Below the pieces are notes generated by a model. It did no database searches. It was not told the DNA's origin and was given only the letters and a program-made list of their open reading frames with translations. Below are positions 40,254-60,627 of a stretch of 64,000 bases of DNA, in pieces (position 1 is the stretch's first letter; each line of letters opens with the position of its first letter). Source of the stretch: Verrucomicrobiota bacterium (GTDB lineage Bacteria; Verrucomicrobiota; Verrucomicrobiia; Limisphaerales; AAA164-E04). The stretch lies in assembly GCA_047947115.1 (NCBI GenBank), contig CP170459.1:3808001-3872000 (forward strand), read 5' to 3'. The translations under genes and the position numbers were made by a program.

Positions 40254-40346
40254 GGAGAGATGGCTGAGTGGTCGAAAGCAACGGTTTGCTAAACCGTCGT
40301 CGTGGGATAACTGCGACCGCGGGTTCGAATCCCGCTCTCTCCGCCA
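40254..40346 (+). tRNA. tRNA-Ser (anticodon GCT)
   Basis: GGAGAGA/TCTCTCC acceptor stem, ACGGT-TT-GCT-AA-ACCGT anticodon arm, long variable arm, GGTTCGAATCC T-loop and encoded CCA. Confidence 0.97.
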
Positions 40347-40437
40347 TTACTTCCTCCAGTATTGTGTCTTATGTTGTTTTTCTTGGTCCTAAATTGGGGT
40401 TTGGTGCTATTCTGTTGGCCAGTTAATTGACTAAATA

Positions 40438-40466
40438 TTGACTCATTTTCCCCGAAAGACTACTGT
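40438..40466 (+). promoter_or_regulatory. Putative sigma70 promoter of the integrase
   Basis: TTGACT (40438-40443), 17 bp, TACTGT (40461-40466). ATG at 40473. Confidence 0.55.
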
Positions 40467-40472
40467 TTACCT

Positions 40473-41618
40473 ATGGGTTCTACAAAAGTATCTGTTAGGA
40501 AGTATAACCATTCTAGAACAGGTAAGTGGGTAGTAGGATACCGCGACACTGCCGGCAGTAGGCGAAGAGAGTTCTTTGCCACAAGATCTGAGGCCAATTC
40601 CAGAGCTGACCAGCTTAAGGTTGATTTAAAAAACCTTGGCAATCGATCACTGGGACTGACTGATCAAATCCGCATTGAAGCTCTTGAATGCTCCGAGAAA
40701 CTTGCGTCTTTCGGGAAGACATTGTCCCAGGCCACTGAGCACTACATTTCTTATCTCCGGACCACTGAGCGCTCCACCATTATCCGAGACCTGGTTTGTC
40801 GTTATTTGGACTCCAAGAAATCCAAAGGCCGATCTGACCGACACATTAAAGATCTACGTTCCAGATTGTCCCGCTTTTCTGATTCGTTCGGTGATAAGTT
40901 CGTATCCACTTTGACTACCGAGCAACTGGATCAGTGGCTTTTGGGGCTAAATCTGAGTCCACAGTCAGTGAACAACTACCGGACAGTTTTAAACGGGCTT
41001 TTTAATCATGCACTGAAACTTGGTTATACTCAAACCAACCCAGTTGACGGAATTGATCGACATTCAGTCAAAGTGGCACCTCCTAACATTTTGACTCCTG
41101 ACCAGTTGAAACGACTTCTGGCTGCTTCAAATCCCCTTCTTGTGCCTTATATCGCGATTGGTGCATTTGCTGGTCTGCGTTCCGCGGAACTGGCCAGGCT
41201 TGATTGGCGCGATGTCCGATTGGATCGTGGGCTGCTTGAGGTCACTGCAGCCAACTCCAAGACAGCCTCCCGGCGGTTGGTTGAATTATCTGACAATTTA
41301 AAAGCCTGGCTTGAGGCATGCGTTCGCCTCAATGGCCCTGTTATGCCTTCGGGATTCCGTAAGTTGGTCACTAGTGCTTGGGAGGTGGTTTTCCCAAGCA
41401 GGAAGAGGGACAACGATCTTCGGAACAGTTTCGCCAGCTACCATTTGGCGCTGCACCAGAATGCTGCCTATACGGCTGACCAACTAGGGCATCGAACAAC
41501 TGCTGTTTTATATCAACATTACCGGGAACTGGTCTCTAAAGAAGAAGCCGAGCAATACTTCGCTATAAATCCAGAACGATCAGGCAACCTGATTATCATG
41601 TCAGCAGCCAGTGCTTAA
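40473..41618 (+). CDS. int: Tyrosine recombinase / phage-type integrase
   Basis: FAGLRSAEL (Arg I), SKT (Lys), NDLRNSFASY (Arg II, His replaced), QLGH and YQHY (catalytic Tyr). SAM-like core-binding domain. Confidence 0.93.
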   Translation: MGSTKVSVRKYNHSRTGKWVVGYRDTAGSRRREFFATRSEANSRADQLKVDLKNLGNRSLGLTDQIRIEALECSEKLASFGKTLSQATEHYISYLRTTERSTIIRDLVCRYLDSKKSKGRSDRHIKDLRSRLSRFSDSFGDKFVSTLTTEQLDQWLLGLNLSPQSVNNYRTVLNGLFNHALKLGYTQTNPVDGIDRHSVKVAPPNILTPDQLKRLLAASNPLLVPYIAIGAFAGLRSAELARLDWRDVRLDRGLLEVTAANSKTASRRLVELSDNLKAWLEACVRLNGPVMPSGFRKLVTSAWEVVFPSRKRDNDLRNSFASYHLALHQNAAYTADQLGHRTTAVLYQHYRELVSKEEAEQYFAINPERSGNLIIMSAASA

Positions 41619-41673
41619 ACGGGTAGGCGCAGCACTGCGGTGACATATTTCTTATTCAATTTCTAATTGGAAC

Positions 41674-42489
41674 ATGAAGGACGAACTATTGGACCGAAAG
41701 GAGTGGGATTTTACCGATATCCCTACGGATGAACTAGAATCGGCGTGGCAATACGAACTGGCCAGGACTGTAAAATCATGTGTGATGGATCAGGCGGTTT
41801 GTTCTAATAATCTGGCAGGTGATCCGCCGAGGAAACTTGATTTGAATAAGGATGACGATGCTATGCTTTGGTATGAGAACACTGTAGGTTGGTATGATGA
41901 TTGGGCTAGCTCAAACGAAATATCGGCACACACCTACCTCCCTTGGACCAGCTTACCAGCAAAGTATAAAACGAAATACTTGATCGCACACAAAGGGGAA
42001 ATCCCTGCCCACCTAACACATGATCACTGTTATACGATGCCATATTCCAGAACTCTCGTCCACCTGGAATACAACCCCTCCCCAAACTCCCAGGTCCTAC
42101 AAAAAAGACACAATTACTTAAAAGCTCAGGACAGACCAGTCACATCTCTACATTTATTTGAAATCCATTTCCGACGAGGTATCGATAGCCGGAGTTCAAT
42201 GATCAGCGATTTTAAGAAGTTTTTGGAGGAGGAATTTCCTAACATGCCTGATAAAGTTGGTCGCCCTAAGTCCAAGATGCCAGAGTTAACGAACCTCGCA
42301 ATCTTTAGGCTACTCATTCACTATACCCCTGATGAGACAATCAGCAAGATTGCAGGAACCTACTCACAAAGGCGCCGTATCAGTTTGAAAGAGCTGGAAA
42401 AAGCTGAAAAAGCTGTCTGTGCTCAAATGCAGGGATTCTGTAAACCTTACCGAACAAGATTTACTCCAAAGCCCCTGGGCCCGTCTTAG
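41674..42489 (+). CDS. Hypothetical protein
   Basis: 271-aa ORF co-oriented with int. No family recognised. Confidence 0.7.
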   Translation: MKDELLDRKEWDFTDIPTDELESAWQYELARTVKSCVMDQAVCSNNLAGDPPRKLDLNKDDDAMLWYENTVGWYDDWASSNEISAHTYLPWTSLPAKYKTKYLIAHKGEIPAHLTHDHCYTMPYSRTLVHLEYNPSPNSQVLQKRHNYLKAQDRPVTSLHLFEIHFRRGIDSRSSMISDFKKFLEEEFPNMPDKVGRPKSKMPELTNLAIFRLLIHYTPDETISKIAGTYSQRRRISLKELEKAEKAVCAQMQGFCKPYRTRFTPKPLGPS

Positions 42490-42700
42490 CTTAAGTCTCA
42501 AAAGCTGGGATTCCTTGGCGGCCCAAGCCCAATAATGAGTTTCGTTAATGGAACTCGTCTTTTATGATTGCATGCAAAAAGTGTAAACCATTTGTAAACA
42601 ATGGTTAAATCTATCTGTTTAAATTATCTCCCTCCATTAAGTATCGAAGTTTTTCGGAGTATTGCATCAGGGGACCATTGTCATGTTAGCTCCGGGAGAC

Positions 42701-42928
42701 ATGGCAAAAATAAAGAAGCAATCAACCCCAACTGAAGGAGCTCTCCTCACAAGAGAGCAGGTAGCTGCTAGGTTACAGATAACAACCAGGACACTCGATC
42801 TCTGGATCGACGCTCAGAAGATACCCGTCATCAGACTTACCTCTGGTTGTATACGGTTTCAATCTGAAGCCGTTGAAAATTTCATCCAGAAGCACACAAT
42901 TAATGCAAGTTGGGAGTTACCACTATGA
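42701..42928 (+). CDS. Excisionase/AlpA-like helix-turn-helix protein (HTH_17)
   Basis: LLTREQVAARLQITTRTLDLWIDAQKIPVIRL..GCIRF. GGGAG precedes ATG 42701. Confidence 0.88.
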   Translation: MAKIKKQSTPTEGALLTREQVAARLQITTRTLDLWIDAQKIPVIRLTSGCIRFQSEAVENFIQKHTINASWELPL

Positions 42929-43149
42929 AAAGTAACTCGATCGATAGCCGGGGTGATAGACTCCCATCCACCTCCACAACAAAAAATCTCAACCAGTAGG
43001 ATAAGCACAGACACCCCTTTTCGGGGTGTCTGGATGGATATCTGTACCTTGAGATTTTCCGTCACAATTTCACTTGCCAATGCAAGTCACCAGTAATCAC
43101 CGAGTTCAGGCATTGGACGACTCCGGCCCAAATTAGAAGGATAAATAAA

Positions 43150-43746
43150 ATGGATTCAAAAGAATCAAATAACACATTCGCGAACATCGACAAGTTTCGC
43201 ATCACACAAGATTTCGACGATATCAGCGTCGAAACTGCCTATACCCACATCCCGTTGCGTAAACCCGGCAAAACCGAATTCTTTAGAGTTAATCCCTCCG
43301 AGGAATCCCGCGGCCAGTTCCTATTCCTGGATTACAGTGAACCAGGGGCCATGACCAAAGACAAATATTTGATTGTACCAGAGCTGGTGAATCAAATACC
43401 AGATGTCTCGGGTGTGAAAGCCCATTTGGTAGTGACGGCTGTATCCAGACCAGAGAATGCACCGTTTCTTTGGCCGATTCGTTTACCAAACAAGACAATG
43501 TTTGGTCCGGATACTTGGGCTCTCTCCGACCTGGACATATTGAAGAGATCAGAAGAGGAGTGGTTGCGTAAAGAAACGAAAGCCGGGGTTCAAGGCTACA
43601 TGGCCGTCATCAGCAAAGCCGATTGGCCGGAACCCGAATTCCCGAACCTGAGTTTCCAGGAGATGCTCGCTAAAGCCATACCAGAGGAACGAATTATAAA
43701 GGATCAAAGCCACACTGTGATCCGCAAGATTAGAGGGGAAATATGA
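43150..43746 (+). CDS. Hypothetical protein translationally coupled to the DNA polymerase
   Basis: 198-aa ORF with AAGGA upstream. Its stop overlaps the polymerase ATG (ATGA, 43743-43746). Confidence 0.8.
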   Translation: MDSKESNNTFANIDKFRITQDFDDISVETAYTHIPLRKPGKTEFFRVNPSEESRGQFLFLDYSEPGAMTKDKYLIVPELVNQIPDVSGVKAHLVVTAVSRPENAPFLWPIRLPNKTMFGPDTWALSDLDILKRSEEEWLRKETKAGVQGYMAVISKADWPEPEFPNLSFQEMLAKAIPEERIIKDQSHTVIRKIRGEI

Positions 43747-45473
43747 ATCTGGCAGCCTTCAAGGAAATCTGGGTGATTGATTTCGAATACCAATCCCTAC
43801 CGGGTGAGAACCCAGATCCGCATTGCATAGTGGGTTTGGAAACCATCACCGGCAAGTCGATAAGAATGGGTGCAAAGGAACTTCGATCGTCGAAAGTTCC
43901 TCCATTCGGCATCGGCTCAGATTCCCTTGTCGTGGCTTACTACGTGCCAGCCGAGTTCAGTTGTTTTCTGGAACTCGGCTGGCCGTGTCCTGAAAATATT
44001 TTGGATCTTTGCGTAGAATTCAAGTGGCTGAAGTCAGGCGTGGCGGATGGACTCAAACGTGACTTGGTAGCAGCCCTGAAACACTTCCGACTTGATGCGA
44101 CGATCCCAGACGCGAAGGACGAATGGCGGCAACTTGCGATACGGGGAGGGCCGTTTACTACCCCGGAGATGGAAGGACTCATGGATTACTGTGCGGAAGA
44201 CGTATATGCGACGGCGGAGTTGTTGACTAAAATGCAGCCACAAATCGATCTCATCAGAGCTTTAATCAGAGGCTCATATTGCTGGTCTGTGGCCCTTATG
44301 GAACGCGCAGGTGTGCCAGTCGATATGGAGGCTTTGACGTTGTTGTGGGGGCAATGGAGCGCCATACAAAGCGGCCTAATAACCGCAACTGACAAATGGG
44401 AGATCTATGAGGGCAATACCTTCAAACGGGATCGGTTTGAGGCCTTCCTGAGGGATCACAAAATCCAATGGCCGAGGTTGGATTCCGGTCAACTCTGTTT
44501 AAAAGACGAGACATTCAGGCAACAGGCTAAAATCCATCCACGATTGATTGCCCCCTTGCACGAATTACGCACCACTTTGGGTAAACTGAAGTTAAACAGT
44601 TTGGCTGTCGGCAAAGATGGCCGCAACCGTGTGATGTTGTCCCCATTTCAATCAAAGACGGGACGCAACCAACCATCTAATTCCAAGTTCATTTTCGGAC
44701 CTGCTACTTGGATCCGAGGCCTTATAAAACCGGGTGCAGGCCGGGCGATTGCTTATATCGATTGGAGTCAACAGGAGCTTGGAATTGCGGCACGTCTTTC
44801 AGGCGATCGGAATATGATGGAAGCCTACTGTTCAGGGGACCCATACATCACTTTCGCGAGAATGGCGGGTGCTGTGCCGAAGGACGCTACCAAGCAAAGC
44901 CACCCAGCTGAAAGATCGCGATACAAACAGTGTATGCTTGCCGTCCAATACGGCATGGGAGCTGAGAGTTTGGCTCAAACTGCTTGCTTGGCTTTACTGG
45001 ATGCCAAAGTTCTTTTGCAAGCCCACAGGGACGCGTTCCCGGACTATTGGAAGTGGAGCCGACAAATAGAACAACAAGGATTTGGAAACGGGGAACTTCG
45101 ATCAGCGTTCGGTTGGCGTGTCCTTGTTAATTCGGACAGCCGTAGTGCCAGTGTTAAGAACTTCCCCGTCCAAGCCAACGGAGCGGAAATGTTGCGTCTG
45201 GCCATCATGAAAATGCACACGGCAGGGATCGAAGTAATCGCGCCGGTTCATGACGCAGTAATGATTGAGGCGGCTTCTTCTGAAATCGAAACCCATACGG
45301 TGAAGGCGCAAGAGTGCATGAGGTGGGCGAGCGAGCAGATCCTACCAGGATTCCCGCTGGATTCGGACGCAAAGATAGTCAAGTACCCTAACCGGTATAT
45401 GGACGAAGACCGGGGAACTGAAATGTGGAACACGGTCATGGGCATCGCAGGGGGTCCACTATATACCCACTAA
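43743..45473 (+). CDS. Family A DNA polymerase (3'-5' exonuclease + polymerase; no 5'-3' nuclease), mobile-element type
   Basis: ExoI IDFE, ExoIII YCAEDV, SKTGRNQP, motif A IDWSQQELGIAA, motif B RSRYKQCMLAVQYG, NFPVQ and motif C VHDAV. Confidence 0.93.
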   Translation: MNLAAFKEIWVIDFEYQSLPGENPDPHCIVGLETITGKSIRMGAKELRSSKVPPFGIGSDSLVVAYYVPAEFSCFLELGWPCPENILDLCVEFKWLKSGVADGLKRDLVAALKHFRLDATIPDAKDEWRQLAIRGGPFTTPEMEGLMDYCAEDVYATAELLTKMQPQIDLIRALIRGSYCWSVALMERAGVPVDMEALTLLWGQWSAIQSGLITATDKWEIYEGNTFKRDRFEAFLRDHKIQWPRLDSGQLCLKDETFRQQAKIHPRLIAPLHELRTTLGKLKLNSLAVGKDGRNRVMLSPFQSKTGRNQPSNSKFIFGPATWIRGLIKPGAGRAIAYIDWSQQELGIAARLSGDRNMMEAYCSGDPYITFARMAGAVPKDATKQSHPAERSRYKQCMLAVQYGMGAESLAQTACLALLDAKVLLQAHRDAFPDYWKWSRQIEQQGFGNGELRSAFGWRVLVNSDSRSASVKNFPVQANGAEMLRLAIMKMHTAGIEVIAPVHDAVMIEAASSEIETHTVKAQECMRWASEQILPGFPLDSDAKIVKYPNRYMDEDRGTEMWNTVMGIAGGPLYTH

Positions 45474-45588
45474 TATTATTAATTAAGATACAATATAAGA
45501 TATATAATAAGAGGCCTACAGGGTACCCCAAATGGGCAGGGGTGCCCGTCCATTTGGGCAGGGGTGCCCGTCCATTTGGGTAGGGGTC
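45471..45588. other. Putative replication origin: AT-rich tract plus 22-bp direct repeats
   Basis: 45471-45510 is 37/40 A+T. TGGGCAGGGGTGCCCGTCCATT occurs at 45533-45554 and 45555-45576, with a partial third copy at 45577-45588. Confidence 0.65.
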
Positions 45589-45603
45589 ACTTTTGAAGAG
45601 CAT

Positions 45604-45936
45604 ATGGCTGAGGAGCTATACATTCCAGACTGCATAGAGCAGAGGGGTTCCGGTAAACCTTTTGTCAAAGGGCCCATACCGTTGGATTGGGTGAAAAGTG
45701 CCTGCCAAGCCGGAGCGGCTGAGTTGGCTTGGTATTTGCGGTATAAGGAGGGTCTTGCCAAGTCCAAAACTATCCATATCAGACCGGGGGAGATGAAAGT
45801 CTTTGGTCTGTCTGAGAAAGTTCGAAGGCGGCAGGTGAAAGCTCTGGAGGTCGCTGGGTTAGTGAAAATTATTTCAAGGCCGGGTCAAAGTCACCGGCTT
45901 GTCATTTTGGACTCCCCAAGTGGTGGGGGGCTTTAG
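45604..45936 (+). CDS. Small winged-helix DNA-binding protein
   Basis: FVKGPIPLDW...FGLSEKVRRRQVKALEVAGLVKIISRPGQSHRLVIL (HTH + wing). Start trimmed to ATG 45604, after the repeats. Confidence 0.75.
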   Translation: MAEELYIPDCIEQRGSGKPFVKGPIPLDWVKSACQAGAAELAWYLRYKEGLAKSKTIHIRPGEMKVFGLSEKVRRRQVKALEVAGLVKIISRPGQSHRLVILDSPSGGGL

Positions 45937-45947
45937 AAAGGAAAACA

Positions 45948-46217
45948 ATGGTAAAATTAGCAGAAAAGTCAAAGTCGATATACGACATCGCCCACAACCT
46001 CATCTGTGGGAAGTTGAGAAAAACAGGAAAGACACAAACTCCCGATGTAGCAATTGAAGAGCTGGTCCAACTTACTGGAGTCACTAAGGAGTTAGCCACC
46101 GATGCGGTTGAATATATTTTCTTCTGCTTGGAAGATATGTCTGGAACGTTCGATACCGAGGAGGAAGCTGATGAAAACGCACGGGAACTTCTGTGGTTCG
46201 TGTTTCAAGAAAAATGA
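45948..46217 (+). CDS. Small hypothetical protein
   Basis: 89-aa ORF with AAGGA upstream, 11 bp after the wHTH gene. Basic N-terminus, acidic C-terminus. Confidence 0.6.
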   Translation: MVKLAEKSKSIYDIAHNLICGKLRKTGKTQTPDVAIEELVQLTGVTKELATDAVEYIFFCLEDMSGTFDTEEEADENARELLWFVFQEK

Positions 46218-46225
46218 CATCAACC

Positions 46226-46252
46226 AGCCTGCCCCTGTTCCAGGGGTAGGCT
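46226..46252 (+). terminator. Hairpin closing the replication operon (terminator-like, no U-tract)
   Basis: AGCCTGCCCCTG-TTC-CAGGGGTAGGCT, 8 bp after the stop codon. Confidence 0.45.
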
Positions 46253-47127
46253 CCCCATCATGGTGAAGTTTCATCACTGAAGGCGCCCTTGATGTAGGTT
46301 GTTGTCGTCATCAGGAACGGTCCTGCAAGTTGCAAGACCTGGCAACCTGGCTATAAGAACTCCACGGGCCAACCATAGCACCAGTCGTACCATGAGGTTT
46401 ACAAAAACAGCTTCTCGGCATATGAACGCTTCGTGATCGTAACGAAGGAAAGTTAGCTTACTCAAACTAAACACCCAAACGGCTAGCCCGCCTCGTACCG
46501 CTGTCCCGGTCAACCAGGGATGGCTTTGGAGGTTCTTTCACTCTCACTCATCCGGTTCGCTTTCGGTAATGGATGCGACTGTCACCAAGAGAGTAGGGGA
46601 GAGGCCTCTCCTGTTCAAATCTGAATTTTCTCCACCTCATCGAGAGTTATATCGTCTCGAGCGCGATCGTAACGTTTGGTTGCAGGTTTACCCCCGGTTC
46701 AGCAATTGGAAATGTTTCCCGGATTTATTGTGGAACGTAACACACGGTATCTTATTCGTGTTGAATGCTTCAAATGAAGCGCCGAAGATACCGAAGGAAA
46801 TGTTTACGTGCAGCTATGAAGCTACCGTTCGTTGCCAGAATCACAGATGGCGGCTGGTGACAGCTTCGCCATATTTGGGCCCACCAGCGCGGATGGAAGG
46901 GGCGTTCAACTCTGGCGCGCCCCGTCCTTTGAGGAAATCGCCGCGACCGAGGCGCAACAGAAATCAATCAACCAACAACAATGATCCGAGAATGTTCACA
47001 CTTACTGAATCAACACCCATGATCTTTGGTTGAGACGGATCGCCGTTAAAGAACCGAATGCATGACTTTACAAGGACAACCCAATTCTATTACGATGCGC
47101 AGAGACCACCAAACGGAAGGAACGAAC

Positions 47128-48810
47128 ATGACACGAGTGAACACTATTATGGCCGTGATGAGTTATTTGCTCGTCATTGCGATGAACGGAGAGGCAACCT
47201 CTTCGTCGCGCCCCAACATCCTGCTGATTGTTGCCGACGATCTTGCCTATACCGACATAGGCGCGTTCGGCGGTGAGATCCACACGCCAAATCTTGATGC
47301 GCTCGCCAGGGCAGGCGTTCGGTTTACCCAGTTTTACTCCGCACCCACTTGTTCTCCGACTCGTTCGATGCTGCTGTCAGGAATGGACAATCATCAGGCC
47401 GGTCTCGGTAACATGGCGGAAGACCTGCGCGAGAACCAAAAGGGACATCCTGGGTACGAGGGTTACCTGAACATGCGGGTAGCGGCCTTGCCCGAGCTGC
47501 TTCGGGAGGCGGGCTACCACACCTACATGGCCGGCAAGTGGCATCTCGGTATGACGGAGGAAACGAGTCCGGCCGCCCGCGGGTTCGAGCACTCGTTCGC
47601 ACTGTTGCAGGGTGGGGCCGGCCACTTCACCGACCTGCCTCTTGTTGGTCCGAACCCGGCCAGTTATCGCGAAGATGGCAAACCTGTCTCGTTGCCGGCC
47701 GATTTCTATTCGAGTAAAACTTACAGTGAACGCATCATCCAATATCTTGAAAACCGGCCGAACGACGGTCGTCCGTTTTTTGCCTATCTTGCGTTCACGG
47801 CACCACACTGGCCCTTGCAGGCACCCGCCGAATCCATAGCAAAGTATGCCGGACGTTACGACGCAGGTTACGATGCGTTGCAGGCGTCCCGATTCGCGCG
47901 GATGAAGCAACTGGGATTGGCGACTCCGGTCATGCAGATGACTCCACGGATTCCAGGCGAGAAAGCCTGGGAAGCGCTTAATGGTGAAGAGAGAAAAATC
48001 GCGGCGCGCAAGATGGAGATCTACGCCGCCATGGTCGACGATCTCGATCGCTATCTTGGCACCGTTCTCGAGACGCTCAAACGTCGCCGGGAGTTCGATA
48101 ATACCTTCATCTTTTTCATGTCCGACAACGGTCCCGAAGGCTCCAATCTCGACGTAGGCTGGGAGGACCTCAGCAAGTGGGTGGCGCAGTGCTGCGACAA
48201 CCGATTTGAAAACATGGGCAGTGACGATTCTTACCTGTGGTATGGCCCTAATTGGGCACGGGCTGGTACCCCTGCATTGCGGGGAATCAAGGGGTTTGCT
48301 TCAGATGGTGGTATCCGTGTGCCGGCCATTGCCCACTTCCCGAAATCTATTCCCGGAGGCTCTCTCCAACACAACCTGGCCACGGTCATGGATGTGATGC
48401 CGACGTTGCTGGATGTTGCCGGAGTCAAGCACCCGCCGACTTTTCAGGGACGCGAGGTGCTGCCTTTGCGGGGAACATCGATGATACCCGCTCTCACCGG
48501 CGCCCGTGCACGCGTGCATGCCGAGGACTATGTGATGGGATGGGAATTGTTCGGCAATCGGGCCATCCGCCAGGGTGATTGGAAGATCGTCTGGCGGACA
48601 GTGGAATCGAGCTATCCAACCGTGCCTCGTGACCCCGAAATCGCTCATGACGTCTGGCGACTGTACCATCTTGCCGAAGATCCGGGCGAGCGGGTCGATT
48701 TGGCGGGAACACATCGTGACGTGTTGCAGGCCATGGTGGCGCACTGGGAAACCTATGTCAGGGAGACCGGCCTGGTACTTCCGGATTACAAAGCCAGTGC
48801 AACCCCCTGA
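47128..48810 (+). CDS. Arylsulfatase (Cys-type, AtsA-like)
   Basis: RPNILLIVADD, CSPTRSMLLSG (CxPxR), GKWHLG, APHWP and SDNG motifs. Signal peptide from ATG 47128. Confidence 0.93.
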   Translation: MTRVNTIMAVMSYLLVIAMNGEATSSSRPNILLIVADDLAYTDIGAFGGEIHTPNLDALARAGVRFTQFYSAPTCSPTRSMLLSGMDNHQAGLGNMAEDLRENQKGHPGYEGYLNMRVAALPELLREAGYHTYMAGKWHLGMTEETSPAARGFEHSFALLQGGAGHFTDLPLVGPNPASYREDGKPVSLPADFYSSKTYSERIIQYLENRPNDGRPFFAYLAFTAPHWPLQAPAESIAKYAGRYDAGYDALQASRFARMKQLGLATPVMQMTPRIPGEKAWEALNGEERKIAARKMEIYAAMVDDLDRYLGTVLETLKRRREFDNTFIFFMSDNGPEGSNLDVGWEDLSKWVAQCCDNRFENMGSDDSYLWYGPNWARAGTPALRGIKGFASDGGIRVPAIAHFPKSIPGGSLQHNLATVMDVMPTLLDVAGVKHPPTFQGREVLPLRGTSMIPALTGARARVHAEDYVMGWELFGNRAIRQGDWKIVWRTVESSYPTVPRDPEIAHDVWRLYHLAEDPGERVDLAGTHRDVLQAMVAHWETYVRETGLVLPDYKASATP

Positions 48811-48944
48811 CGCAGCAGCCGCTTCTTTATCCAATCAAAACCTTGGTGTGTCAGAAGGCAGATCATGCATGTTCCATCATTTCTTTTCTATTTTTTGAAG
48901 GGTTTTACCGATGGATTGCGCCATGATAGGTAGGCGAATATTGT

Positions 48945-49211
48945 ATGAGCGCATCAGAACCAACTGAATCACCTTCGGAACGCGAGTTATTCTTTGAAGC
49001 ATTGGGAAAAGCTTCGAGAAAAGAACGTGCCATTTTTCTGGACGGTGCCTGCTTCAATCGTCCGGATTTGCGGCGTCGGCTGGAGGAATTGTTGGATCTA
49101 ACGCCGAAAAGGTACCAAATGTTGCACAGGATCCCGAATGTTCTTATCAGGATTGTCATTAACCATGCATTCGACAAACTTGCGCATCCATCAGAACCCT
49201 ATGATGGATAG
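48945..49211 (+). pseudogene. N-terminal stub of a PVC-type Ser/Thr kinase
   Basis: ERELFFEAL...ERAIFLDGAC..RPDLRRRLEELL is the typical pre-kinase helical cap. Similarity stops near 49095 and no kinase domain follows. Confidence 0.6.
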
Positions 49212-49280
49212 GTAATAGCCAGTAAGTAGTATGCACTTTGACGCTTGAATCAATGCGAAATTTAGGTGTCCCCTATAGGG

Positions 49281-50136
49281 ATGCCCCGAATGAAAATATT
49301 ATCCAATCCGGAACGTGAAACGTATGATTCTCCACCACGTTTTAATTTACCAGAGCGAAAGGTGTTTTTCGATCTACCTCCGACGCTTATGCAAATTGCT
49401 GAAAATTTGCGTAATCCAGACAATCGTGCGTGTTTCATCGTTGCTTGTGGATATTTCAGAAGTACCAAGAGATTCTTTTCAGGAAAATGCCGACAGGAAG
49501 ATATTGATTATGTGGCCAAGAAGACAGGATTAACAATCGGTGATGAAACAAATCGCGGTCACGACCGATACAGAACTGTTCGACATCGGAAAGCGATAAT
49601 CGAGTTTTATGGATTCAAAGATTACGACACCGCTGCAAAAAGATTCTTGGAGAAGGAAATTGAAGCCATGGTGCAATCTCAGCTCAAGCCAAGACTCATT
49701 TTCTTTCGTTCAGTGGATATTTTGGTGGAACAAAAAGTTTCACCTCCTGGAAGCTCCTCATTGACCAAATTGATTCTGAACGTACTAAACCGCCACCGAC
49801 AATCCCTTATCGAAAGTGTGGATAGGATTCTTCCATTGGAAACACGCAAGGTATTGGATCATCTCACGGAAAAGGTAATCAACAAACATGACGAGCCGAT
49901 TAACCGCTACCGGCTGACACTTCTGAAAAAATGTTCCCAATCAACCAGGCCAACAAAGATCCGAGAAGGTGCCAGTGATCTTCAATTGCTCCGGAGTCTC
50001 CATGATTCCGTGTGCCCCATTGTCAAACAATTGGAGCTACCTCACGGTGCCATTCAATATTTCGCTAACAGCGTTATTCGATCGGACACATTCGACATAC
50101 TCCGAAGGACGGAGGAAGACCGGTATCTGCACCTAA
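49281..50136 (+). pseudogene. tnpA: Tn3-family transposase N-terminal fragment (DUF4158), truncated by IS1380
   Basis: MPRMKILS..E..YDSPPRFN..ERK.FF N-terminus. The frame runs into the IS inverted repeat after DRYLHL, about 285 aa of a normally ~1000-aa protein. Confidence 0.8.
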
Positions 50137-51722
50137 CCCGGATATTTCATCAAAACCAGAAATACCCACAAATTGGTTTTCATTGTAGCTCAAGGTTGAG
50201 TTTGGAGAGGTCAGACGCACCTTTTTAAGGTTCTTTTCGAATTGAGGATACACTCCCCCAATCCCCCATTGTTTTTCGACGTGCCGGGGCAGCACTCTGG
50301 GCATGTTATCCTGTGTTCAGTTTGGCGTGAATATGTGCAAAGAGTTTTTGATAGGGGTATGCCTGACTCATCAATAATCGAATGCGTCTTGTGTTTTTCA
50401 GGACGATGGTTCCAATTTTGAACAGTTTCAGTCGGATGGTGCTGACCTGGGCTCGAGCCATTTCACTTCCTTTCAATCCAACTCGGCGGATGGTTTCCAT
50501 CAGCACATAGGCAGCACTGCTGAGCAGGAGTCGAAACTGATTGCTCCACCATTTATGACAACTGGTTCGGTCGGCGAATAATCCAAGCTGTTGTTCCTTG
50601 ATGCGGTTTTCCATTTCTCCCCGAGCACAATAAATCTTCTCGTAGATATGCTGGGCATTGCCCGAAAGGTTACTCACCACAAATCTGGGATTGCTGCCCT
50701 GTCGATTATGTTCCGCTTTAATGATCACCATTCTTTCCTGATCCCAGGAATGTGCCTTGTATTGGAGACAGGCAAAGTGGCGTTGTTTTTCACCAGTCTT
50801 TTCAAAGAGAACAGCGGATTCTGAAATAAGGTTTTGTCCTTGTTCAAGCAATCGTGGGTTTTGGGCGATTCCAACAACATACTTCACTTCATGAGGTTCG
50901 CACCAACGCAACATTCTCCAACGACAAAACCCGGAGTCTCCCCGGAAGATGATGCGTACTTTGGTCCATTTTAGGCGCAGGCGTTGAACCAGCAATTTGA
51001 GAATAGCCCATGCATGACGTGCAGGATCAATATTGCTTGGGCGTAGATAACTGACCAAGAGTTGCTCGCCACAAAAGACATAAAGAGGAAGGAAACACCA
51101 GCAATCGTAATACCCGTGAAAACTGCGTCTCTCCTGGCCGCCATGAACTCGATCATCAGTTGCGTCAAAATCCAGAATCAGTTCTTCCGGAGCTTTTTTG
51201 AAAGAGTTGATAAAAGTTTCAATCAAGACTTTCGAAAAATCCATCGCTGTTTGGCGATCTGCCCGAGCTTCAAAGCGACACAAAGTAGGACTGCTGGCAA
51301 GCGAATCAGAACGTTCCACAGCACTTTGAATGAGTGGATCCTTTCGGAGGCAATCGTGATCGTTGAGATCTTCGTATCCCAAGGCCAGGCCGTAAATGCG
51401 TTGACGCAACAAATCGAGAGTGGAATGAGCCGTCCGGCCAGATTGACGAGGATCGGTCATCACCTTGGAAATCGATTTGGTAAGACCAAGTAACCGATCA
51501 GCCTGCCTTAAAAACAAAGCACCACCGTCCGAGGAAATGTGACCACCGCTGAAAGAAGCCTCAATTTTTCGTCGTTCAAGGCTTGGAAACTCAAAAGAAA
51601 TCTGGTTACACTTTGTCATTAGCGGAGTTTTTACTGGTTTTTGTTTCAACACCAACAACCATATGGGATTATCCCAAAAACTTCGCTAATTTTTTTTAAT
51701 TTAATGAAATATCCGGGTTAGG
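50132..51722 (-). mobile_element. IS1380-family insertion sequence
   Basis: Perfect 19-bp inverted repeats CCTAACCCGGATATTTCAT (50132-50150) and ATGAAATATCCGGGTTAGG (51704-51722) flank one transposase. The true ends may be 50137 and 51717. Confidence 0.93.
50306..51619 (-). CDS. IS1380-family DDE transposase
   Basis: SSDGG, GYEDLNDH, LDFDATDD, RGDSGF and YCARGEMENRIKEQ motifs. ORF is intact. Confidence 0.95.
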   Translation of the reverse strand: MTKCNQISFEFPSLERRKIEASFSGGHISSDGGALFLRQADRLLGLTKSISKVMTDPRQSGRTAHSTLDLLRQRIYGLALGYEDLNDHDCLRKDPLIQSAVERSDSLASSPTLCRFEARADRQTAMDFSKVLIETFINSFKKAPEELILDFDATDDRVHGGQERRSFHGYYDCWCFLPLYVFCGEQLLVSYLRPSNIDPARHAWAILKLLVQRLRLKWTKVRIIFRGDSGFCRWRMLRWCEPHEVKYVVGIAQNPRLLEQGQNLISESAVLFEKTGEKQRHFACLQYKAHSWDQERMVIIKAEHNRQGSNPRFVVSNLSGNAQHIYEKIYCARGEMENRIKEQQLGLFADRTSCHKWWSNQFRLLLSSAAYVLMETIRRVGLKGSEMARAQVSTIRLKLFKIGTIVLKNTRRIRLLMSQAYPYQKLFAHIHAKLNTG

Positions 51723-51738
51723 GAGATTGTTTTGTTTG

Positions 51739-51765
51739 GACAGGATGAACAGGATGGACTGGATG
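51739..51765. repeat. Three 9-bp tandem units (GACAGGATG/AACAGGATG/GACTGGATG)
   Basis: Read directly from the sequence. Lies just past the stop of the kinase gene. Confidence 0.6.
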
Positions 51766-51783
51766 ATGGATTGATTCTTGGGT

Positions 51784-54381
51784 TTATTTTGTTGCCTCCC
51801 GGTTGAGGATGGTCGTGTTCGGTTGGATGACGATTCGGAAGCCGATGGCTTCGGGGCGGGTGATGAAGACGGCGTTTTCGCGGGGGGGTTCGAATTCGTT
51901 GAATCGGTGTTGACCGAAATATCCACCGCCATGGAGTTTCCATTTCACGGGTTCAAAGTTGTTGGATTCGTCGCGATCCAGCAGTAGGTCGGAAGCGCTC
52001 CATTCCCAGGCATTGCCTTGCAGATCAAACAGTCCACTGGGGCTCGCTAAGCCCTGGCCGGTTGATTTCAGAAAGTTGATCGGGTCAATGGTTTGGTCGA
52101 GATAGTAATCCCGGTAAACCAATAGTCTCGCAGGATCTTCGACGGGGGTGATGCCAAATTGATAAGTGCCTTCCAAGTGTTCCGATTGCCAAAGTTCCAT
52201 CCAGTCTTTTTCTTGCGGCAGAGAGGTCAATGGACGTGCGAGTTCAAACATTTGGTAGCCGAACCAGTTTGCCATGCCGGATGCCGTGCGACGATCCAGG
52301 CCGGTGACCGGAAAGGTCGGTCCCATCCGGTCGGGTTGAAAGTTGAGTTGGCTTAGGATTAAGTTCGCGATTTCAGGGTTGTCGCTCAGCCAACGTGCGA
52401 AATCCATGATCCGGATTTCCCATATACTCCAATAAAGGTTATTCACTTTGATATACCGCATGTCCAATGCCTTCACCTTGTGTTGGGCCTTGTCCCATGC
52501 ATCATGCGCTTTCATACGCTGGGTTGAAACTTCGTTTGTCCAACGTTCATAGATGCGAGTGGCCTGTATCAGGTGATTCAAAGATTCCCGGTATTGTTCT
52601 GCCTGGAACAGTGCTTGTGCCTGATCCTTCATGCCTGGCACATCCGCAAGAAACTTTAATTCGGGAGGTCCGATCGATTCCGGGAAGAGGTTGATCCAAT
52701 GCTGTTCGGCTGCTTCAAAAAGGCTCCAATGTTCGCGAAAGATGGTTTCCTGATGAGTTCGGAGCTTCGACTCCTGTTCCCTGAGTGACTGAATGCCTTC
52801 TTGCCTGGAGCCGGAAGCAAGAAAATCCAGCGATGATTCATCGGTGGGGGCGGTATTTCCTGCTGATTTTGTGATCGTGGGAGAGGAGGTGTTGAGGCGC
52901 ACAATGGCGTCCCTGAGGCGGTGTGCTTCCCGGATGGTGGCCACCATATTTGTAGTTCTGTTGATTTCCTGATCCAGACGCTCAAATAAAGGTCCTGCCT
53001 CTTGAAATGATTCCGAGTCGAGTGCAGCACGTGCGGCTTGCAGGAGATCGCTGATGGCATCCCAATGTCCCTCGGCATTCAATCTTGGCTCCATCCACTG
53101 GCAGGCTGCATGGACGAAGTGCCATTGATTGGATGCCTGCATCCAGGTGGTGGAACCGGTGTTGTTGCCCGCCTGGACGGCTCCTTCCACTTCCATCTTG
53201 CGGTGCAGGATTTCCATTTCCATTTTGAGGGACCGGATTTGTTCCCGAACTTGGTTCATCGCTGATTTTGAACTCACGGCGCGTTCATTCCAGGTGCGGA
53301 TTTGTTCGGTTCGGTGCAGGAGATCCTGACGGGCAAAGGATGAAGACAGTATCGTTAATCCTCCGCATATCAAGGTCAGAATGCCTGCCTTGATTCCATT
53401 GGAAGCGGATCGCCAGCCGCGACGAATTTTCGAAAACCATCCTTCGGGTCGAATGCCCCGGTCAAGCGCGTTGGCAAACTCAACCAGGGAAGGAAATCTG
53501 TTTTCGGGCAGGTGATCCAATGCGCGATCGATGGCCTCGGTGAAGGGCATGGGTAAATCGGGGCGTTTGTCATACAGGCTTCCCGCCACGCCGAGTGGGA
53601 ATCTTCCGGTCAGCAATTCGTAGGCGATCACCGCCAGGGAATATTGATCGGCACGAGTGTCTGCCGAAGTGTTCTGTTCCAACACTTCAGGTGCCATATA
53701 GTAAGGGGTGCCTGCGGAAAGTTGGCTTACACTTTGGCGGAACAGGCTGCTATGCGGGGTGCGGATGACTTGGGCCAGACCGAAATCCATGACTTTGATC
53801 TCCCCGGATGGCAAAAGGGCGATGTTTTCCGGCTTGATATCGCGGTGGATGGTGGTGTTGTGTGCGTATATCAACGGGGCACAAATCGATTGGATCAACG
53901 AATGGACGTTGTCAATGGAAAGGGGCTTGTCCTCATCCTTCAGCTGCTTCATCCATTCCCGTAGGTTGCTTCCTTCCAATAGTTCCATCTCCAGAAAATA
54001 AATCCCTTGGAACTGATGGACGTCGAACACCTTGACAATGCCGGGGTGTGTCAGGCGTGAAGCGATCCTGACTTCATGGATGAAGTTATTGACGGCTTGT
54101 GGATCTTGCAACAGGGATGGGGAAATGCATTTCAAAGCGACCTCATGTCCGCGGTTCCGATCCATGGCCCGGTAAACGATGCTCATGCCCCCGCTTCCAA
54201 TGCGTTCAAGGATTTCGAAGCGGTCTTGGATGTGGTTGCCCACTTTTAATTCGCCTGCCGCCAGATCGATCCGGGATGCATGACCGGAAAGAGCCTCTTC
54301 CTTCGATCGCAGCTTCCGCTCACGACGATCCGGAATGGACCAAACCTGAGAACTTTTTCTTTCGGGCGGAGGAGTTTTCAT
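51784..54381 (-). CDS. Membrane Ser/Thr protein kinase with C-terminal FGE-sulfatase-like domain
   Basis: GSGGMSIVY, VALK, HRDIKPEN, DFG and GTPYYMAPE. TM helix. GLFDLQGNAWEW...IGFR. Start 54381 overlaps the upstream stop (ATGA). Confidence 0.9.
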   Translation of the reverse strand: MKTPPPERKSSQVWSIPDRRERKLRSKEEALSGHASRIDLAAGELKVGNHIQDRFEILERIGSGGMSIVYRAMDRNRGHEVALKCISPSLLQDPQAVNNFIHEVRIASRLTHPGIVKVFDVHQFQGIYFLEMELLEGSNLREWMKQLKDEDKPLSIDNVHSLIQSICAPLIYAHNTTIHRDIKPENIALLPSGEIKVMDFGLAQVIRTPHSSLFRQSVSQLSAGTPYYMAPEVLEQNTSADTRADQYSLAVIAYELLTGRFPLGVAGSLYDKRPDLPMPFTEAIDRALDHLPENRFPSLVEFANALDRGIRPEGWFSKIRRGWRSASNGIKAGILTLICGGLTILSSSFARQDLLHRTEQIRTWNERAVSSKSAMNQVREQIRSLKMEMEILHRKMEVEGAVQAGNNTGSTTWMQASNQWHFVHAACQWMEPRLNAEGHWDAISDLLQAARAALDSESFQEAGPLFERLDQEINRTTNMVATIREAHRLRDAIVRLNTSSPTITKSAGNTAPTDESSLDFLASGSRQEGIQSLREQESKLRTHQETIFREHWSLFEAAEQHWINLFPESIGPPELKFLADVPGMKDQAQALFQAEQYRESLNHLIQATRIYERWTNEVSTQRMKAHDAWDKAQHKVKALDMRYIKVNNLYWSIWEIRIMDFARWLSDNPEIANLILSQLNFQPDRMGPTFPVTGLDRRTASGMANWFGYQMFELARPLTSLPQEKDWMELWQSEHLEGTYQFGITPVEDPARLLVYRDYYLDQTIDPINFLKSTGQGLASPSGLFDLQGNAWEWSASDLLLDRDESNNFEPVKWKLHGGGYFGQHRFNEFEPPRENAVFITRPEAIGFRIVIQPNTTILNREATK

Positions 54382-56735
54382 TTCAGGTCTTTGGGCCAGT
54401 TTTTGATCACACATCGGAATCCGCTTTCCACCAGGCCGGCCGGTGGGTTCACCCGATATCCGACGCGCATCTGTTCCGGATGCAAGGTGCGCCATCCCCC
54501 GCCGCGCAGCGTGTAATGTTGTGTGCGATTGGGTGGGGGTTGAAACCTGTATTCGGAAGAAACCCATTCCATCACGTTGCCGCCAACGTCATATAATCCA
54601 TGCCCGTTGGCTTTGAATTGCCCCACGGGGGCCGTGCGGTCAAAACGATCGATCTTGCCGAAGTATTGATTCGATGCGTCAGCGCTGCTGAGGGTGTAGT
54701 AGTTGCCGTAGTTGGAAAAATCGTTTGAATTCCCATCCCATGGCAGTAAATCCGGGGCGTTGAAATGCCGCTCCTCCGGCCATTCGCCTGTTTCATGGGG
54801 AAGCCCGGCCAGTTGACTCCACTCTTCGTCTGTAGGAAGGGAATAGTAGGCATCCTCAGGCAATAAACCCATAGAGCGTTCTTTTTCGGTCAACCATTCA
54901 CAGAATTTGACCGCACCGTAACGAGTGATGGTGGATACGGGGTGTGCAGGAGTATTCAAAGCTGCTTCCTCCCGCCAGGAACGGTTTTCATCAAAGCCGC
55001 TTGAGGTAATGAAATGATAAAAATCAATGACACGTGTTTCCCAGATCGATACGCGCATGTTACCCACTTGAACGAAGAACATACCAAGACTGTTTTGAAA
55101 GCCTTGGGGTGGCTCTTTGGGCAGTGCTTCCCAATCGTTGGTCCAGAATGTGAATTGTTCCTGAATGCGGCGTGCTTCCACAATCTTATCGACCACCTCA
55201 GGGCCAGTTCCGGGGTTCTCCAACTGTTCGAGTGCGGCCGTAAGATTCTCTTGAGGCTCGGCATAAGGGGTGCCCCGCACCTTCAATGCATGCGCCCAGT
55301 CATCCCGTTTTTCCGCGGCAACTTTCTTTTCGGCGGCGAGCAGGGATATGAGCTCTGACTGAAGTGTGGAAAGGGATTCGTCGAGCTGTTGGATGGCGGT
55401 GTCCAATTGTCCCGTTTTTGCAGAGGCCAAGGTTGCAGTCTGTGACTTGGCAAGGTGCGCTATCCATGCGTCCCGTTCTTCTTTGCGGGTGGTAGTGGAT
55501 TGGTCGATGTGGTGTATCCACGTTCCAGTTTGCGAAAACAATCGAACCCATCTCTGACCTTTGGTGATTCGGATTCGCTCGGATTCGAGTTCGGTTTGAA
55601 GTTGGTTCATTTGAACCTGCAGCTTATTTCCGCTCAGTGCTCCCAATTCCAACATGGTGTCGATGGGGTATATGTGACCAAAGAGATTCTGTAAATGAGG
55701 GTGCAAAGCCGCATGTTGAAATCCATCTTTGAAAAGTTGAACGCGTTCCGCTTCCAGCTCGCGGGTCATTCGTTGCAGATCCGTGCGTGTCGTGGTCTCA
55801 GGGATGACTACTGATGTTTCATAAGATAATTCCTGCCAAAGCGGGATTAATAACAAGAGCAATGGCGCCCACACCAAACCCCGGGTCCATGCTTTCTTGT
55901 GGAACAATTGTTTGATGGATTTCGAGGAGGTGATTGTTCTTTTTGAAGTTAACTTTTCCCGAACCCCTTTCAATGCATGCATCAACGCTGGGAGATCTTC
56001 AAAGCGGTCCGCGGACGATGTTTCGGTGAGTCGTTGAATGATGGATCTGTGGGTTTGGAATGAGTCCGAATGATCTTTCAGTTGACTGCACTGGATGAGT
56101 TCGGTCCACAAAGTTCCCAGTGCGAATTGATCCGTTTTGAAATCGGGTTTGGCGTCGAGTTCATACATTTCGGGGGGCAGGTATTGCCCGGTGCGCAACA
56201 AAGCGGCGCTCGATTTCAAGCTGTCCGGTGATAGAAGGTGATGGAGTCCATATTCACTCAGGGATACCGTTCCGTCTTTGGACAGCCAAATGTTTTCGGG
56301 TTTGATGCCCGCATGAGCCCAGCCTGTTTGAACGCCCGCTTGCAGGACTTGGGAAATGGTTTCGACGATTTCGAGAATGGTTTCTTCTGTGAATTGTTTG
56401 GAGGGATCTGCTTTTGCCTGCTTGATGCGTTCTCGCAGGACCTGTCCCTTCTGGCGTTGCATGCTGATGTATGCGCCTCCTGCGTGGGGCGCAAAATCAA
56501 ACACGGTGACGACGGATGGGTGACGGAAATTCGTGGTGGTGGTGAGCCATTTTGCGGCCACATCAAACCCGCCGACTTCATCGATGATTTCTTCATCAAT
56601 CCATCGAAGTGCGACGGTTTCGTTTCGGACATGATCCTGAGTCAGCCAGACCTTGCCCGTTGATCCTTCACCCAGTTCTTCAAGGCATTCGTAACGGTTG
56701 GCGATCCAGGTTGAGTCGTTCCCTAGTTCTTCCAT
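54378..56735 (-). CDS. Membrane pseudokinase with C-terminal FGE-sulfatase-like domain
   Basis: Kinase fold with VALR, HAGIKPEN and EYG. TM helix. NSLGMFFV, LPTDEEW, GLYDVGGNVMEW, LRGGGW and GFRC motifs. Confidence 0.85.
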   Translation of the reverse strand: MEELGNDSTWIANRYECLEELGEGSTGKVWLTQDHVRNETVALRWIDEEIIDEVGGFDVAAKWLTTTTNFRHPSVVTVFDFAPHAGGAYISMQRQKGQVLRERIKQAKADPSKQFTEETILEIVETISQVLQAGVQTGWAHAGIKPENIWLSKDGTVSLSEYGLHHLLSPDSLKSSAALLRTGQYLPPEMYELDAKPDFKTDQFALGTLWTELIQCSQLKDHSDSFQTHRSIIQRLTETSSADRFEDLPALMHALKGVREKLTSKRTITSSKSIKQLFHKKAWTRGLVWAPLLLLLIPLWQELSYETSVVIPETTTRTDLQRMTRELEAERVQLFKDGFQHAALHPHLQNLFGHIYPIDTMLELGALSGNKLQVQMNQLQTELESERIRITKGQRWVRLFSQTGTWIHHIDQSTTTRKEERDAWIAHLAKSQTATLASAKTGQLDTAIQQLDESLSTLQSELISLLAAEKKVAAEKRDDWAHALKVRGTPYAEPQENLTAALEQLENPGTGPEVVDKIVEARRIQEQFTFWTNDWEALPKEPPQGFQNSLGMFFVQVGNMRVSIWETRVIDFYHFITSSGFDENRSWREEAALNTPAHPVSTITRYGAVKFCEWLTEKERSMGLLPEDAYYSLPTDEEWSQLAGLPHETGEWPEERHFNAPDLLPWDGNSNDFSNYGNYYTLSSADASNQYFGKIDRFDRTAPVGQFKANGHGLYDVGGNVMEWVSSEYRFQPPPNRTQHYTLRGGGWRTLHPEQMRVGYRVNPPAGLVESGFRCVIKNWPKDLK

Positions 56736-58012: not shown

Positions 58013-58068
58013 GGATTGTGCCAGATGCTTTGCTCGAGCCGTTGACCATTATTGAACTCCATCCATGG

Positions 58069-58242
58069 TCATTCCCCATCTGGCTTGAGAACGTCGGAAG
58101 GGTTGGTGTAATCTTGTGAAGTTCGATTCTGGTTGGAGGGGCTTGCGGGGGCGGGATCGTCCAGATCCAGTAAATCCTTCAGTAACCCGGCCAATTGTTC
58201 CGGACCGGCAGTACGGAGATCTTTTTTTTCGTTTTTGTTCAT
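58069..58242 (-). CDS. Possible 57-aa small protein
   Basis: ATG 58242 to TGA 58069 (MNKNEKKDLRTAGPEQLAGLLKDLLDLDD...). Co-oriented between the sigma gene and the kinase operon. Below the track cutoff. Confidence 0.35.
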   Translation of the reverse strand: MNKNEKKDLRTAGPEQLAGLLKDLLDLDDPAPASPSNQNRTSQDYTNPSDVLKPDGE

Positions 58243-58470
58243 TGATGAGTGTTTGTTGCCTGGAGGTGCATGAGTGTTTTATCCGCAGATGTCATAGATG
58301 AACACCGATATTAAAAGGAACACAAATTGTTTGGATACCTGTGTAATGACTCGTCCCTGACAAGTCCATTCGTTGCGGTATGAACCAACTCTCTGTCCAA
58401 AATCCAAATCATCTGCAGGTTTCAAACTGCATAACTTTATTTTGATGTCCAAGATCGAGTCCCACATATG

Positions 58471-60615: not shown

Positions 60616-60627
60616 GCCTTCAAGCTT

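Follow-up and report, generated by a model that had tools for sequence, protein, structure and literature searches.

How an integrative element may replicate when it encodes a family A DNA polymerase and no recognisable primase or helicase is the question raised by a tRNA-Ser-linked island of a Verrucomicrobiota bacterium (GCA_047947115.1). The window analysed is a stretch of 64,000 nucleotides of this genome (contig CP170459.1, positions 3,808,001 to 3,872,000 of the forward strand); coordinates are those of the 64-kb window unless C1 is given, and the window's own genome is termed G000. The island was found to contain three consecutive genes, for a 198-aa protein (U), a family A DNA polymerase (PolA) and a winged-helix protein (D), with a repeat-containing cis site after polA. 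The trio and the cis site are likely the island's own replication module, which would replicate the excised circle through strand displacement with no helicase encoded by the element, and it is very probable that they serve as a replication module in some form. The features of the replication slot and its borders are as follows (ORF, open reading frame; SSB, single-stranded DNA-binding protein).

42979..43067, plus strand: structured leader, common to the primase-helicase sister islands (fold z -4.8)
43150..43746, plus strand: U, 198 aa, predicted gp32-like OB-fold SSB; 4-nt overlap with polA, translationally coupled
43743..45473, plus strand: family A DNA polymerase (PF00476), assigned by sequence to the CHEAP subfamily; 3'-5' exonuclease and polymerase, no 5'-3' exonuclease
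45470..45512, no strand: AT-rich tract, predicted unwinding element; 11.6% GC, TCTTAT repeats on the minus strand
45496..45525, minus strand: diverged inverted copy of the iteron/AT junction motif (consensus CACCCGTACA-TCTTAT), aligning in register
45528..45593, plus strand: three 22-bp direct repeats, predicted iterons; starts 45528, 45550 and 45572, cores exactly 22 bp apart
45604..45936, plus strand: D, winged-helix protein of about 110 aa, predicted origin-binding initiator; the longest ORF (134 aa) starts at 45532
46290..46352, plus strand: 63-bp block 3' of the replication slot, 97-98% identical in both primase-helicase sister islands

Exchange of replication modules

Two sister islands of G000 were found to have the same layout as the window island, namely integrase, orphan gene, Xis/AlpA gene, replication slot and TerS-like gene. 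The slot of the sisters contained a Zn-ribbon/Toprim primase-like protein (weak, E 1e-3 to 4e-2) and an AAA_25 helicase (E 1e-24), which strongly supports the proposal, made earlier from the sequence alone, that a PolA occupies the primase or Rep position. In the window island and both sisters the slot is flanked by the same two non-coding blocks, a structured one of 100 bp on its 5' side and one of 63 bp on its 3' side. The metagenomic locus L157, at a tRNA-Thr, was found to contain an integrase-orf-Xis block of the sister type (93% DNA identity) joined to a trio of the window type (98%), and the switch maps to the shared homology block at 43014-43067. The same junction was present in X15, an independent RNA-library contig from another study, which covers 43014-45799 and is not proof of transcription; loose contig ends were found at 43014 in runs X3 and X15. 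In L158 the trio was joined to the downstream side of the sister. Since L157 joins the sister integrase block to the window trio, the modules are interchangeable, and this interchangeable occupation of one slot is the strongest available sign that their function is equal. The slot of G002 (L149:2906-7023, G002:C125) contained a different PolA (24% identity) and a DUF3854/DUF5906 primase-helicase-like protein.

The hairpin leader at 42979-43067 was also found at L004:14446-14553 and L005:6418-6526; it precedes both kinds of module and may be an attenuator or an antisense target. The alignment of the three leader sequences, which are few, contained 22 pairs, two of them with compensatory change, and in Rfam the tRNA was the sole match, with none for the leader. 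The primase-helicase island L004 (G000:C1:4516688-4538711) contained a CRISPR-Cas operon with an array-like region and a MoxR/VWA/HEAT set, and its att resembles tRNA-Thr yet lies far from the tRNA-Thr gene.

Co-conservation and distribution of the trio

The sample comprised the best matches of each scan, namely 80 genome loci, 25 close viral loci and 80 held-out metagenome loci, many of them related and not independent. The genome loci were found in Planctomycetota, Proteobacteria, Acidobacteria, Nitrospinota, Myxococcota, Desulfobacterota-type bacteria, Verrucomicrobiota and one Bacillus relative. U was present directly upstream of polA in 80 of the 84 loci with room (the misses being one ORF-calling artefact and three viral loci), and D was present downstream of polA in 82/99 by the strict count (five ORF-start artefacts, three loci with D upstream and nine without D). 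The held-out metagenome loci contained U upstream in 54/55 and D downstream in 55/56. The reciprocal search with U in 801 genomes gave 12 matches, 11 of them next to a polymerase gene and the last one a degenerate fragment. In 63 of the 80 genome loci, and in 24 of the 27 with room, a tyrosine or serine recombinase lies no more than 5 kb away, often beside a tRNA or tmRNA. The three genes are thus co-conserved and accompany integrases, as the sequence-only reading had anticipated, and together with a recurrent cis site they hold up as the single unit that it had described. Their presence is sporadic, with the trio in 2/201 genomes of the host's order and in 8/401 and 3/400 of two other genome sets.

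A second trio island of G000 was found at C1:2602853-2642430 (L003), at a tRNA-Leu(CAG), with a length of 39.5 kb, a 31-bp att, 35/58/46% identity and four 22-bp repeats. No full-length integrase was present beside its tRNA; a 209-aa tyrosine recombinase lies downstream of the trio on the other strand. The acidobacterial loci L031, L053 and L058 contained D upstream of U and no junction motif, and L244 (G282:C1:3101471-3104938) contained a divergent pair of U and PolA, suggesting more sister subfamilies.

The conserved site after polA

The homologous loci were found to contain, 3' of polA, two to four 21-23-bp repeats followed by the junction CACCCGTACA-TCTTAT and an AT-rich tract with TCTTAT-like repeats. 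The junction motif was scored with a leave-one-out position weight matrix at a threshold of 10 bits, which replaced a regular expression that had missed the window and matched 35/309 controls. With coding DNA as control and related loci in the sample, the motif reached 10 bits in 63/103 loci against 0/206 controls (49/89 outside the training set) and in 30/69 held-out metagenome loci against 0/69 controls; a best repeat period of 21-24 or 42-46 bp was found in 47/82 loci against 68/320 controls, and a 30-bp GC fraction of 0.20 or below in 46/82 against 10/320.

In the window's subclade the whole cis site is inverted (24 bits in L003, 12-17 bits in L159-L162), and the site of the tRNA-Leu island L003 was the top-scoring one in the entire G000 genome. 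The AT-rich tract is near-identical in L158, though the trio region is only 79% identical overall. The window was found to contain phased repeats of about 20 bp beside the AT-rich tract, an iteron-type layout, and to judge from this arrangement the conserved site looks like a replication origin.

The polymerase

By its sequence, the window polymerase belongs to the CHEAP subfamily, PolA cluster #15. It was found to be identical to the Ideonella dechloratans CHEAP reference at 70/106 positions, ungapped, over residues 292-397 (a hand count of a partial stretch). The host Pol I is 23% identical to it and is retained in G000 as a separate gene of 948 aa. When 120 proteins were placed in a tree, all 99 members formed one clade apart from host Pol I with a split support of 1.0, in line with the separate placement expected earlier; the reading as a paralogue of host Pol I was rejected. 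Leucine at the F762 position (B3) and the motif A aspartate were conserved in 99/99 members, and the ExoIII tyrosine and aspartate in 98/99; the window enzyme keeps the catalytic residues D13/E15/Y149/D153, D340, K395, Y403 and D504. A comparison of polA with L158 gave 174 synonymous against 92 non-synonymous codon changes, so the gene is under purifying selection.

Published work is cited here and below for the parts of each article that were available. The CHEAP reference enzyme proofreads and is highly active both as a polymerase, where it surpasses Klenow, and as an exonuclease; the CHEAPs were called cellular auxiliary polymerases with no known partners, and no other subfamily lies nearer to the SCCmec primase CCPol (Czernecki et al. 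2023, PMC10201439). The dataset of that study includes a 'thermostable polA_2' of Bythopirellula, and a protein of similar name (P0049) is among the polymerase matches found here. The window enzyme resembles the reference in its clade, in leucine at B3 and in intact exonuclease and polymerase motifs, and likewise does not replace Pol I; whereas the published description is of cellular and partnerless enzymes, the genes found here lie on mobile elements with SSB-like and wHTH (winged helix-turn-helix) partners and a cis site (PMC10201439). The CHEAP polymerase is a mobile-element enzyme in a fixed trio and not a cellular one. A prophage-borne PolA3 group, which may or may not include this clade, has also been described (PMC12926913).

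The spacing from TGR to motif A was 34 residues in 84/84 matched sequences, against 39 in E. coli Pol I (1qsl) and, by alignment, 40 in host Pol I. In PolA-SSB primases a shortened last thumb helix before motif A, with six residues missing, was linked to priming (Rice 2023, PMC10061031). No PLSDB plasmid matched the window polymerase at E 1e-30, and the INPHARED phages gave only a 26% partial match, with none above 51% coverage. The CHEAPs P0104 and P0106 contained an insertion of about 155 aa after residue 225, in the thumb region, a candidate processivity element.

The partner proteins

The AF2 model of U had a pLDDT of 92. The top four Foldseek rows against the PDB were all T4/RB69 gp32 (weak, E 0.017-0.06), and the top row of a second structural search was again gp32 (Z 4.7, rmsd 4.7, 143 aligned), with phage SSBs among the viral matches; U is accordingly predicted to be a gp32-like OB-fold SSB. 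The U family comprises 5,819 clusters at 50% identity. For U there was no sequence match in the PDB and no usable match in the ESM Atlas, and viral contigs searched with this protein alone gave no relatives; longer or fused forms were not found either, which is weak evidence. The prediction of a complex of PolA and U scored 0.01.

The 134-aa ORF of D folds as a winged helix in its model, which agrees with the earlier call, and its likely start is the ATG at 45604, 3' of the repeats. The linkage of D to the repeats suggests that it may be an origin-binding initiator, and weak matches to RepA_N, DnaB/DnaD-like and phage initiator domains were found. Environmental variants of D contained an in-frame 9-nt insertion.

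Primase and helicase genes

No primase, helicase, relaxase or capsid gene was found with Pfam among the ORFs of the window island that were scanned. The earlier statement that these are lacking therefore held for this set, and its further statement that no terminase gene is present is doubtful in view of a Terminase_5 match beside attR. Nor was a primase or replicative helicase found with Pfam in 237 of the 388 neighbouring ORFs of at least 130 aa at the homologous loci; the only helicases among the 237 were of defence type (HsdR, Cas3, DUF4011), and defence genes are frequent cargo near the trio. Seven att-bounded elements of 7.2-17.2 kb contained no primase or helicase among 50 ORFs scanned, and clustering of the neighbours gave no conserved primase or helicase family.

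A TerL match was found in 17/25 close viral loci, some with portal and capsid, and the genome locus L016 contained a major capsid protein (MCP) and TerS beside the trio. Phage-like loci with terminase, portal and capsid contained no helicase among the ORFs scanned, L096 excepted, so that the absence of primase and helicase foreseen for homologous loci applies to the scanned neighbours with this sole and distant exception. Judged by its gene neighbourhoods, the module is used by cargo islands and satellites as well as by small prophage-like elements. The distinct class of element suggested by the sequence-only reading stands in its replication-module part; the module does not mark a class, as it is portable, swaps with primase-helicase and also lies beside terminase, portal and capsid genes.

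The viral loci L098-L100 and L105 contained U and PolA followed by capsid, portal and terminase, and no D; a serine integrase was present in L099 and L100, and no junction motif was found in the loci scored, L098-L100. The viral loci L094/L108 and L110 contained neither U nor D.

Extent and cargo of the island

An exact 66-bp copy of the 3' part of the tRNA-Ser was found at C1:3894038-3894103 (window-equivalent 86038-86103), 45.7 kb downstream. Because of this repeat the island is taken to extend over 45.8 kb, and the compact element of about 6 kb that had been proposed is rejected; no attR is present within the 64-kb window, as it is located beyond the window end. Besides the 6-kb core, the island contains about 39 kb of cargo, and a TerS-like helix-turn-helix (HTH) gene lies next to attR. 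The gene set read from the sequence (tRNA-Ser, integrase, orphan, Xis-like HTH, 198-aa ORF, PolA, wHTH and small ORF, all on the plus strand) was recovered in place, as were the AT-rich/iteron segment with its tract and three 22-bp repeats and the hairpin at 46226-46252. The features outside the replication slot are as follows.

40254..40346, plus strand: tRNA-Ser(GCT), integration target; its 3' 66 bp (40281-40346) are the att core
40473..41618, plus strand: tyrosine integrase, 381 aa (PF00589 E 1e-8; phrog_1 E 2e-45)
41674..42489, plus strand: 271-aa orphan, with homologs in the same slot of one G000 sister island and of G002
42662..42928, plus strand: Xis/AlpA-like HTH, likely excisionase or regulator (HTH_17 E 1e-6; phrog_66)
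45948..46217, plus strand: 89-aa ORF, conserved only in near-identical copies
46226..46252, plus strand: GC-rich hairpin without U-tail (fold z -3.9 for 46215-46300), not called as a terminator
46569..64000, no strand: island cargo, with sulfatase, Tn3-family fragment, IS1380-type transposase, two Ser/Thr kinases and Ig-domain proteins

The 198-, 134-, 271- and 89-aa proteins matched no model in Pfam, PHROGs or NCBIfam, and promoter and terminator scans were at chance level. The cargo cluster at 51784-64000 was found to contain two Ser/Thr kinase-FGE proteins, large Ig-domain proteins and a sigma-factor-like ORF (judged by eye; no Pfam match), followed further on by two photolyase-family genes. 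The cargo beyond the window, up to attR, contained photolyases, insertion sequences, leucine-rich repeat proteins and the TerS-like HTH gene. A non-coding stretch at 46356-46680 was found to be 75-83% identical over 270-330 bp to two sites in G007 and to others in G022; a G007 counterpart adjoins a tyrosine-recombinase-like fragment, and the stretch is possibly the end of another mobile element.

The 147-aa HTH protein beside attR matched Terminase_5 (E 1e-7) over residues 7-53 only and a PHROGs TerS family weakly (E 6e-5). Its gene was found five times in G000 at 86-93% identity, at C1:3893334-3893777 (L002:8335-8778), 109729, 150853, 1700829 and 4516691; it adjoins the att end of at least two G000 islands and is possibly a shared packaging or mobilisation gene. 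The island core was contained in seawater and salt-marsh sequencing runs, and these runs, together with the nearest named homologs, make a marine host likely.

Proposed mechanism and alternative explanations

The act of replication, the part played by each protein and the displacement of strands are inferred, as follows. After excision, D would bind the helically phased 22-bp repeats and open the AT-rich tract, the gp32-like SSB would coat the strands and hold them apart at the bubble, and copying of the circle would fall to the proofreading PolA, which would displace the strand without any element-encoded helicase. Priming is the weakest step. De novo priming by PolA, with or without the SSB and by analogy with CcPol-MP, is a tentative proposal to which we give slightly less than an even chance; it is suggested by the kinship with CCPol and by the short helix before motif A (Rice 2023). 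A primer derived from a transcript (that of polA running into the origin) or made by host primase is nearly as probable, and some other route is fairly improbable. That the three proteins form a self-sufficient replicon, in which PolA and SSB prime de novo and displace the strand with no primase or helicase of any source, is rather doubtful.

Several observations weigh against the trio being a replication module that acts on an excised circle. No excised circle or attP junction was seen in assembled environmental contigs, where contig depth is not readable as copy number; no empty site was shown among 30 relatives, and no locus matches the DNA beyond attR. The tRNA-Ser site of the relatives contained other integrases in G001, G005 and G010 and none in G003 and G004, with no matching downstream synteny. 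D is absent from nine loci, and U from three viral ones. A detectable junction motif is missing in about 40-55% of loci, the copy in the window has a longer spacer and a weak matrix score of 4.8-7.2, below the threshold, and the contrasts obtained for the cis site overstate significance because the controls are coding DNA and the loci are related. The fold matches behind the reading of U as an SSB are weak (best E 0.017, Z 4.7), and D matches transcription regulators and replication initiators about equally, the winged-helix fold being common. The shortened helix was also found in the alignment of Aquifex Pol I and is for this reason not diagnostic of priming. The remaining 151/388 neighbour ORFs, mostly antisense shadow ORFs and genes beyond the tRNA, were outside the Pfam scan, and the viral locus L096 contained a VapE/DUF5906 helicase-like gene 5 kb off on the other strand, which was missed by the Walker-A regular-expression screen, so that this screen is not fully sensitive.

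The trio may instead supply an initiator only, with the wHTH opening the iteron origin, the host replisome (DnaB/DnaG/PriA, Pol III) taking over, and the part of PolA and SSB limited to elongating the first primer, in the way that host Pol I acts on ColE1/ColE2-type plasmids. The iterons and AT-rich tract of the window are the layout of host-dependent plasmid origins (PMC2647930, in the part available), D is a bare wHTH with weak matches to initiator domains (RepA_N, DnaB/DnaD-like and phage), and transcription of polA runs towards the origin and thus offers a transcript as primer. This is nevertheless unlikely, as the hosts own a Pol I that would make a proofreading polymerase and SSB redundant, the occurrence of the same module in very distant phyla fits independence from host replisome contacts, and the trio replaces both primase and helicase in the swap. 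Quite improbable is a dependence on helper phages, by which the module would mark an origin and borrow the helicase or primase of the helper, or would convert incoming single-stranded DNA to duplex before integration. The TerS-like gene by attR here and in the sister islands, the TerS, TerL, portal and MCP genes beside the trio in viral contigs and L016, and the resemblance of U to phage gp32 agree with it, and second-strand synthesis was raised as a role for PolA-SSB pairs (Rice 2023, PMC10061031); however, loci with their own terminase, portal and capsid are still without a helicase among the ORFs scanned, and second-strand synthesis does not need a conserved double-stranded iteron site.

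A non-replicative trio, in which an auxiliary polymerase would act in repair, recombination or defence and the wHTH would be an autoregulator on repeats of its own promoter, was considered very improbable. The description of CHEAPs as cellular auxiliary polymerases (PMC10201439), the position of the repeats just upstream of D and the frequency of defence genes as cargo are in its favour, whereas the trio holds the core slot and exchanges with primase-helicase; moreover, an origin accounts better than a promoter for the repeat/AT site, whose orientation relative to D is inverted in this subclade and not in most others, and whose position differs in some loci. A decayed prophage stripped of primase, helicase and virion genes, for which the packaging genes of viral-contig relatives would speak, is almost certainly wrong and was rejected, as the genes are intact and selected, the same set recurs in about 180 loci including the seven att-bounded elements, and no primase or helicase remnants were found among the scanned ORFs even in phage-like loci. 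Replication of the excised island by the trio and its cis site is accordingly retained as the likely explanation.

Comparison with known systems

Pipolins, integrative cargo elements with a primer-independent PolB as hallmark and no primase or helicase, are the closest functional analogue, the enzyme being of family B there and of family A here; to our knowledge they contain no conserved SSB/wHTH/iteron set. A pipolin was rejected as an identity for the window element since its enzyme is not a primer-independent family B polymerase. PICI/P4-like satellites typically carry primase-helicase replication genes, and the sister islands of G000 are of this classic type. Such satellites, tycheposons and VEIMEs resemble the island in the tRNA integrase, Xis/AlpA, small replication module and cargo or TerS/MCP, whereas the replication slot of the trio elements contains SSB-PolA-wHTH instead of primase-helicase; the available text on tycheposons and VEIMEs mentions polymerases in some elements, with the family unnamed, and these could include this module unrecognised (bioRxiv 2020.12.28.424599; PMC9618062).

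The closest known systems are the PolA-SSB primases and SCCmec CcPol-MP-Cch2, which share an A-family polymerase with catalytic residues (Bebel 2020, PMC7581432; PMC10061031). All 17 published pairs were from Bacillota and tied to a helicase, with a small OB-barrel SSB between polymerase and helicase (Rice 2023, PMC10061031). In contrast to CcPol-MP, as far as the available text describes it, the trio was found without a helicase, with a stand-alone wHTH, a larger gp32-like SSB (as predicted) upstream of the polymerase and a full proofreading exonuclease, mostly with tyrosine integrases at tRNAs and in many phyla. TV-Pol is likewise an A-family-related polymerase on mobile elements that was proposed to prime, but is defined by its linkage to a D5 helicase and by a minimal polymerase core, neither of which holds for the trio (Iyer et al. 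2008, PMC2579912); it was rejected as no linkage or fusion to a D5-like helicase was found at trio loci. No description of the trio was found in the open-access literature, subscription papers not being covered.

Significance

We take the trio to be a new and widespread replication module within a familiar kind of element, one with a PICI/tycheposon-like backbone; its polymerase clade had already been named. The module escapes notice because family models are lacking for two of the three proteins. It gives the orphan but biochemically proven CHEAP subfamily a biological role and partners, and because the trio trades places with primase-helicase it poses a sharp and testable question on family A replication without either; the cassette of 2.8 kb is small enough for direct testing. 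The three genes are new markers for satellites and islands that present primase-based searches probably overlook. If the polymerase primes and displaces strands, the PolA-SSB primase idea would extend beyond Bacillota, and a high-fidelity enzyme for isothermal amplification would be provided. If the trio is a self-sufficient replicon, it would be the PolA counterpart of pipolins across thousands of protein clusters and many phyla.

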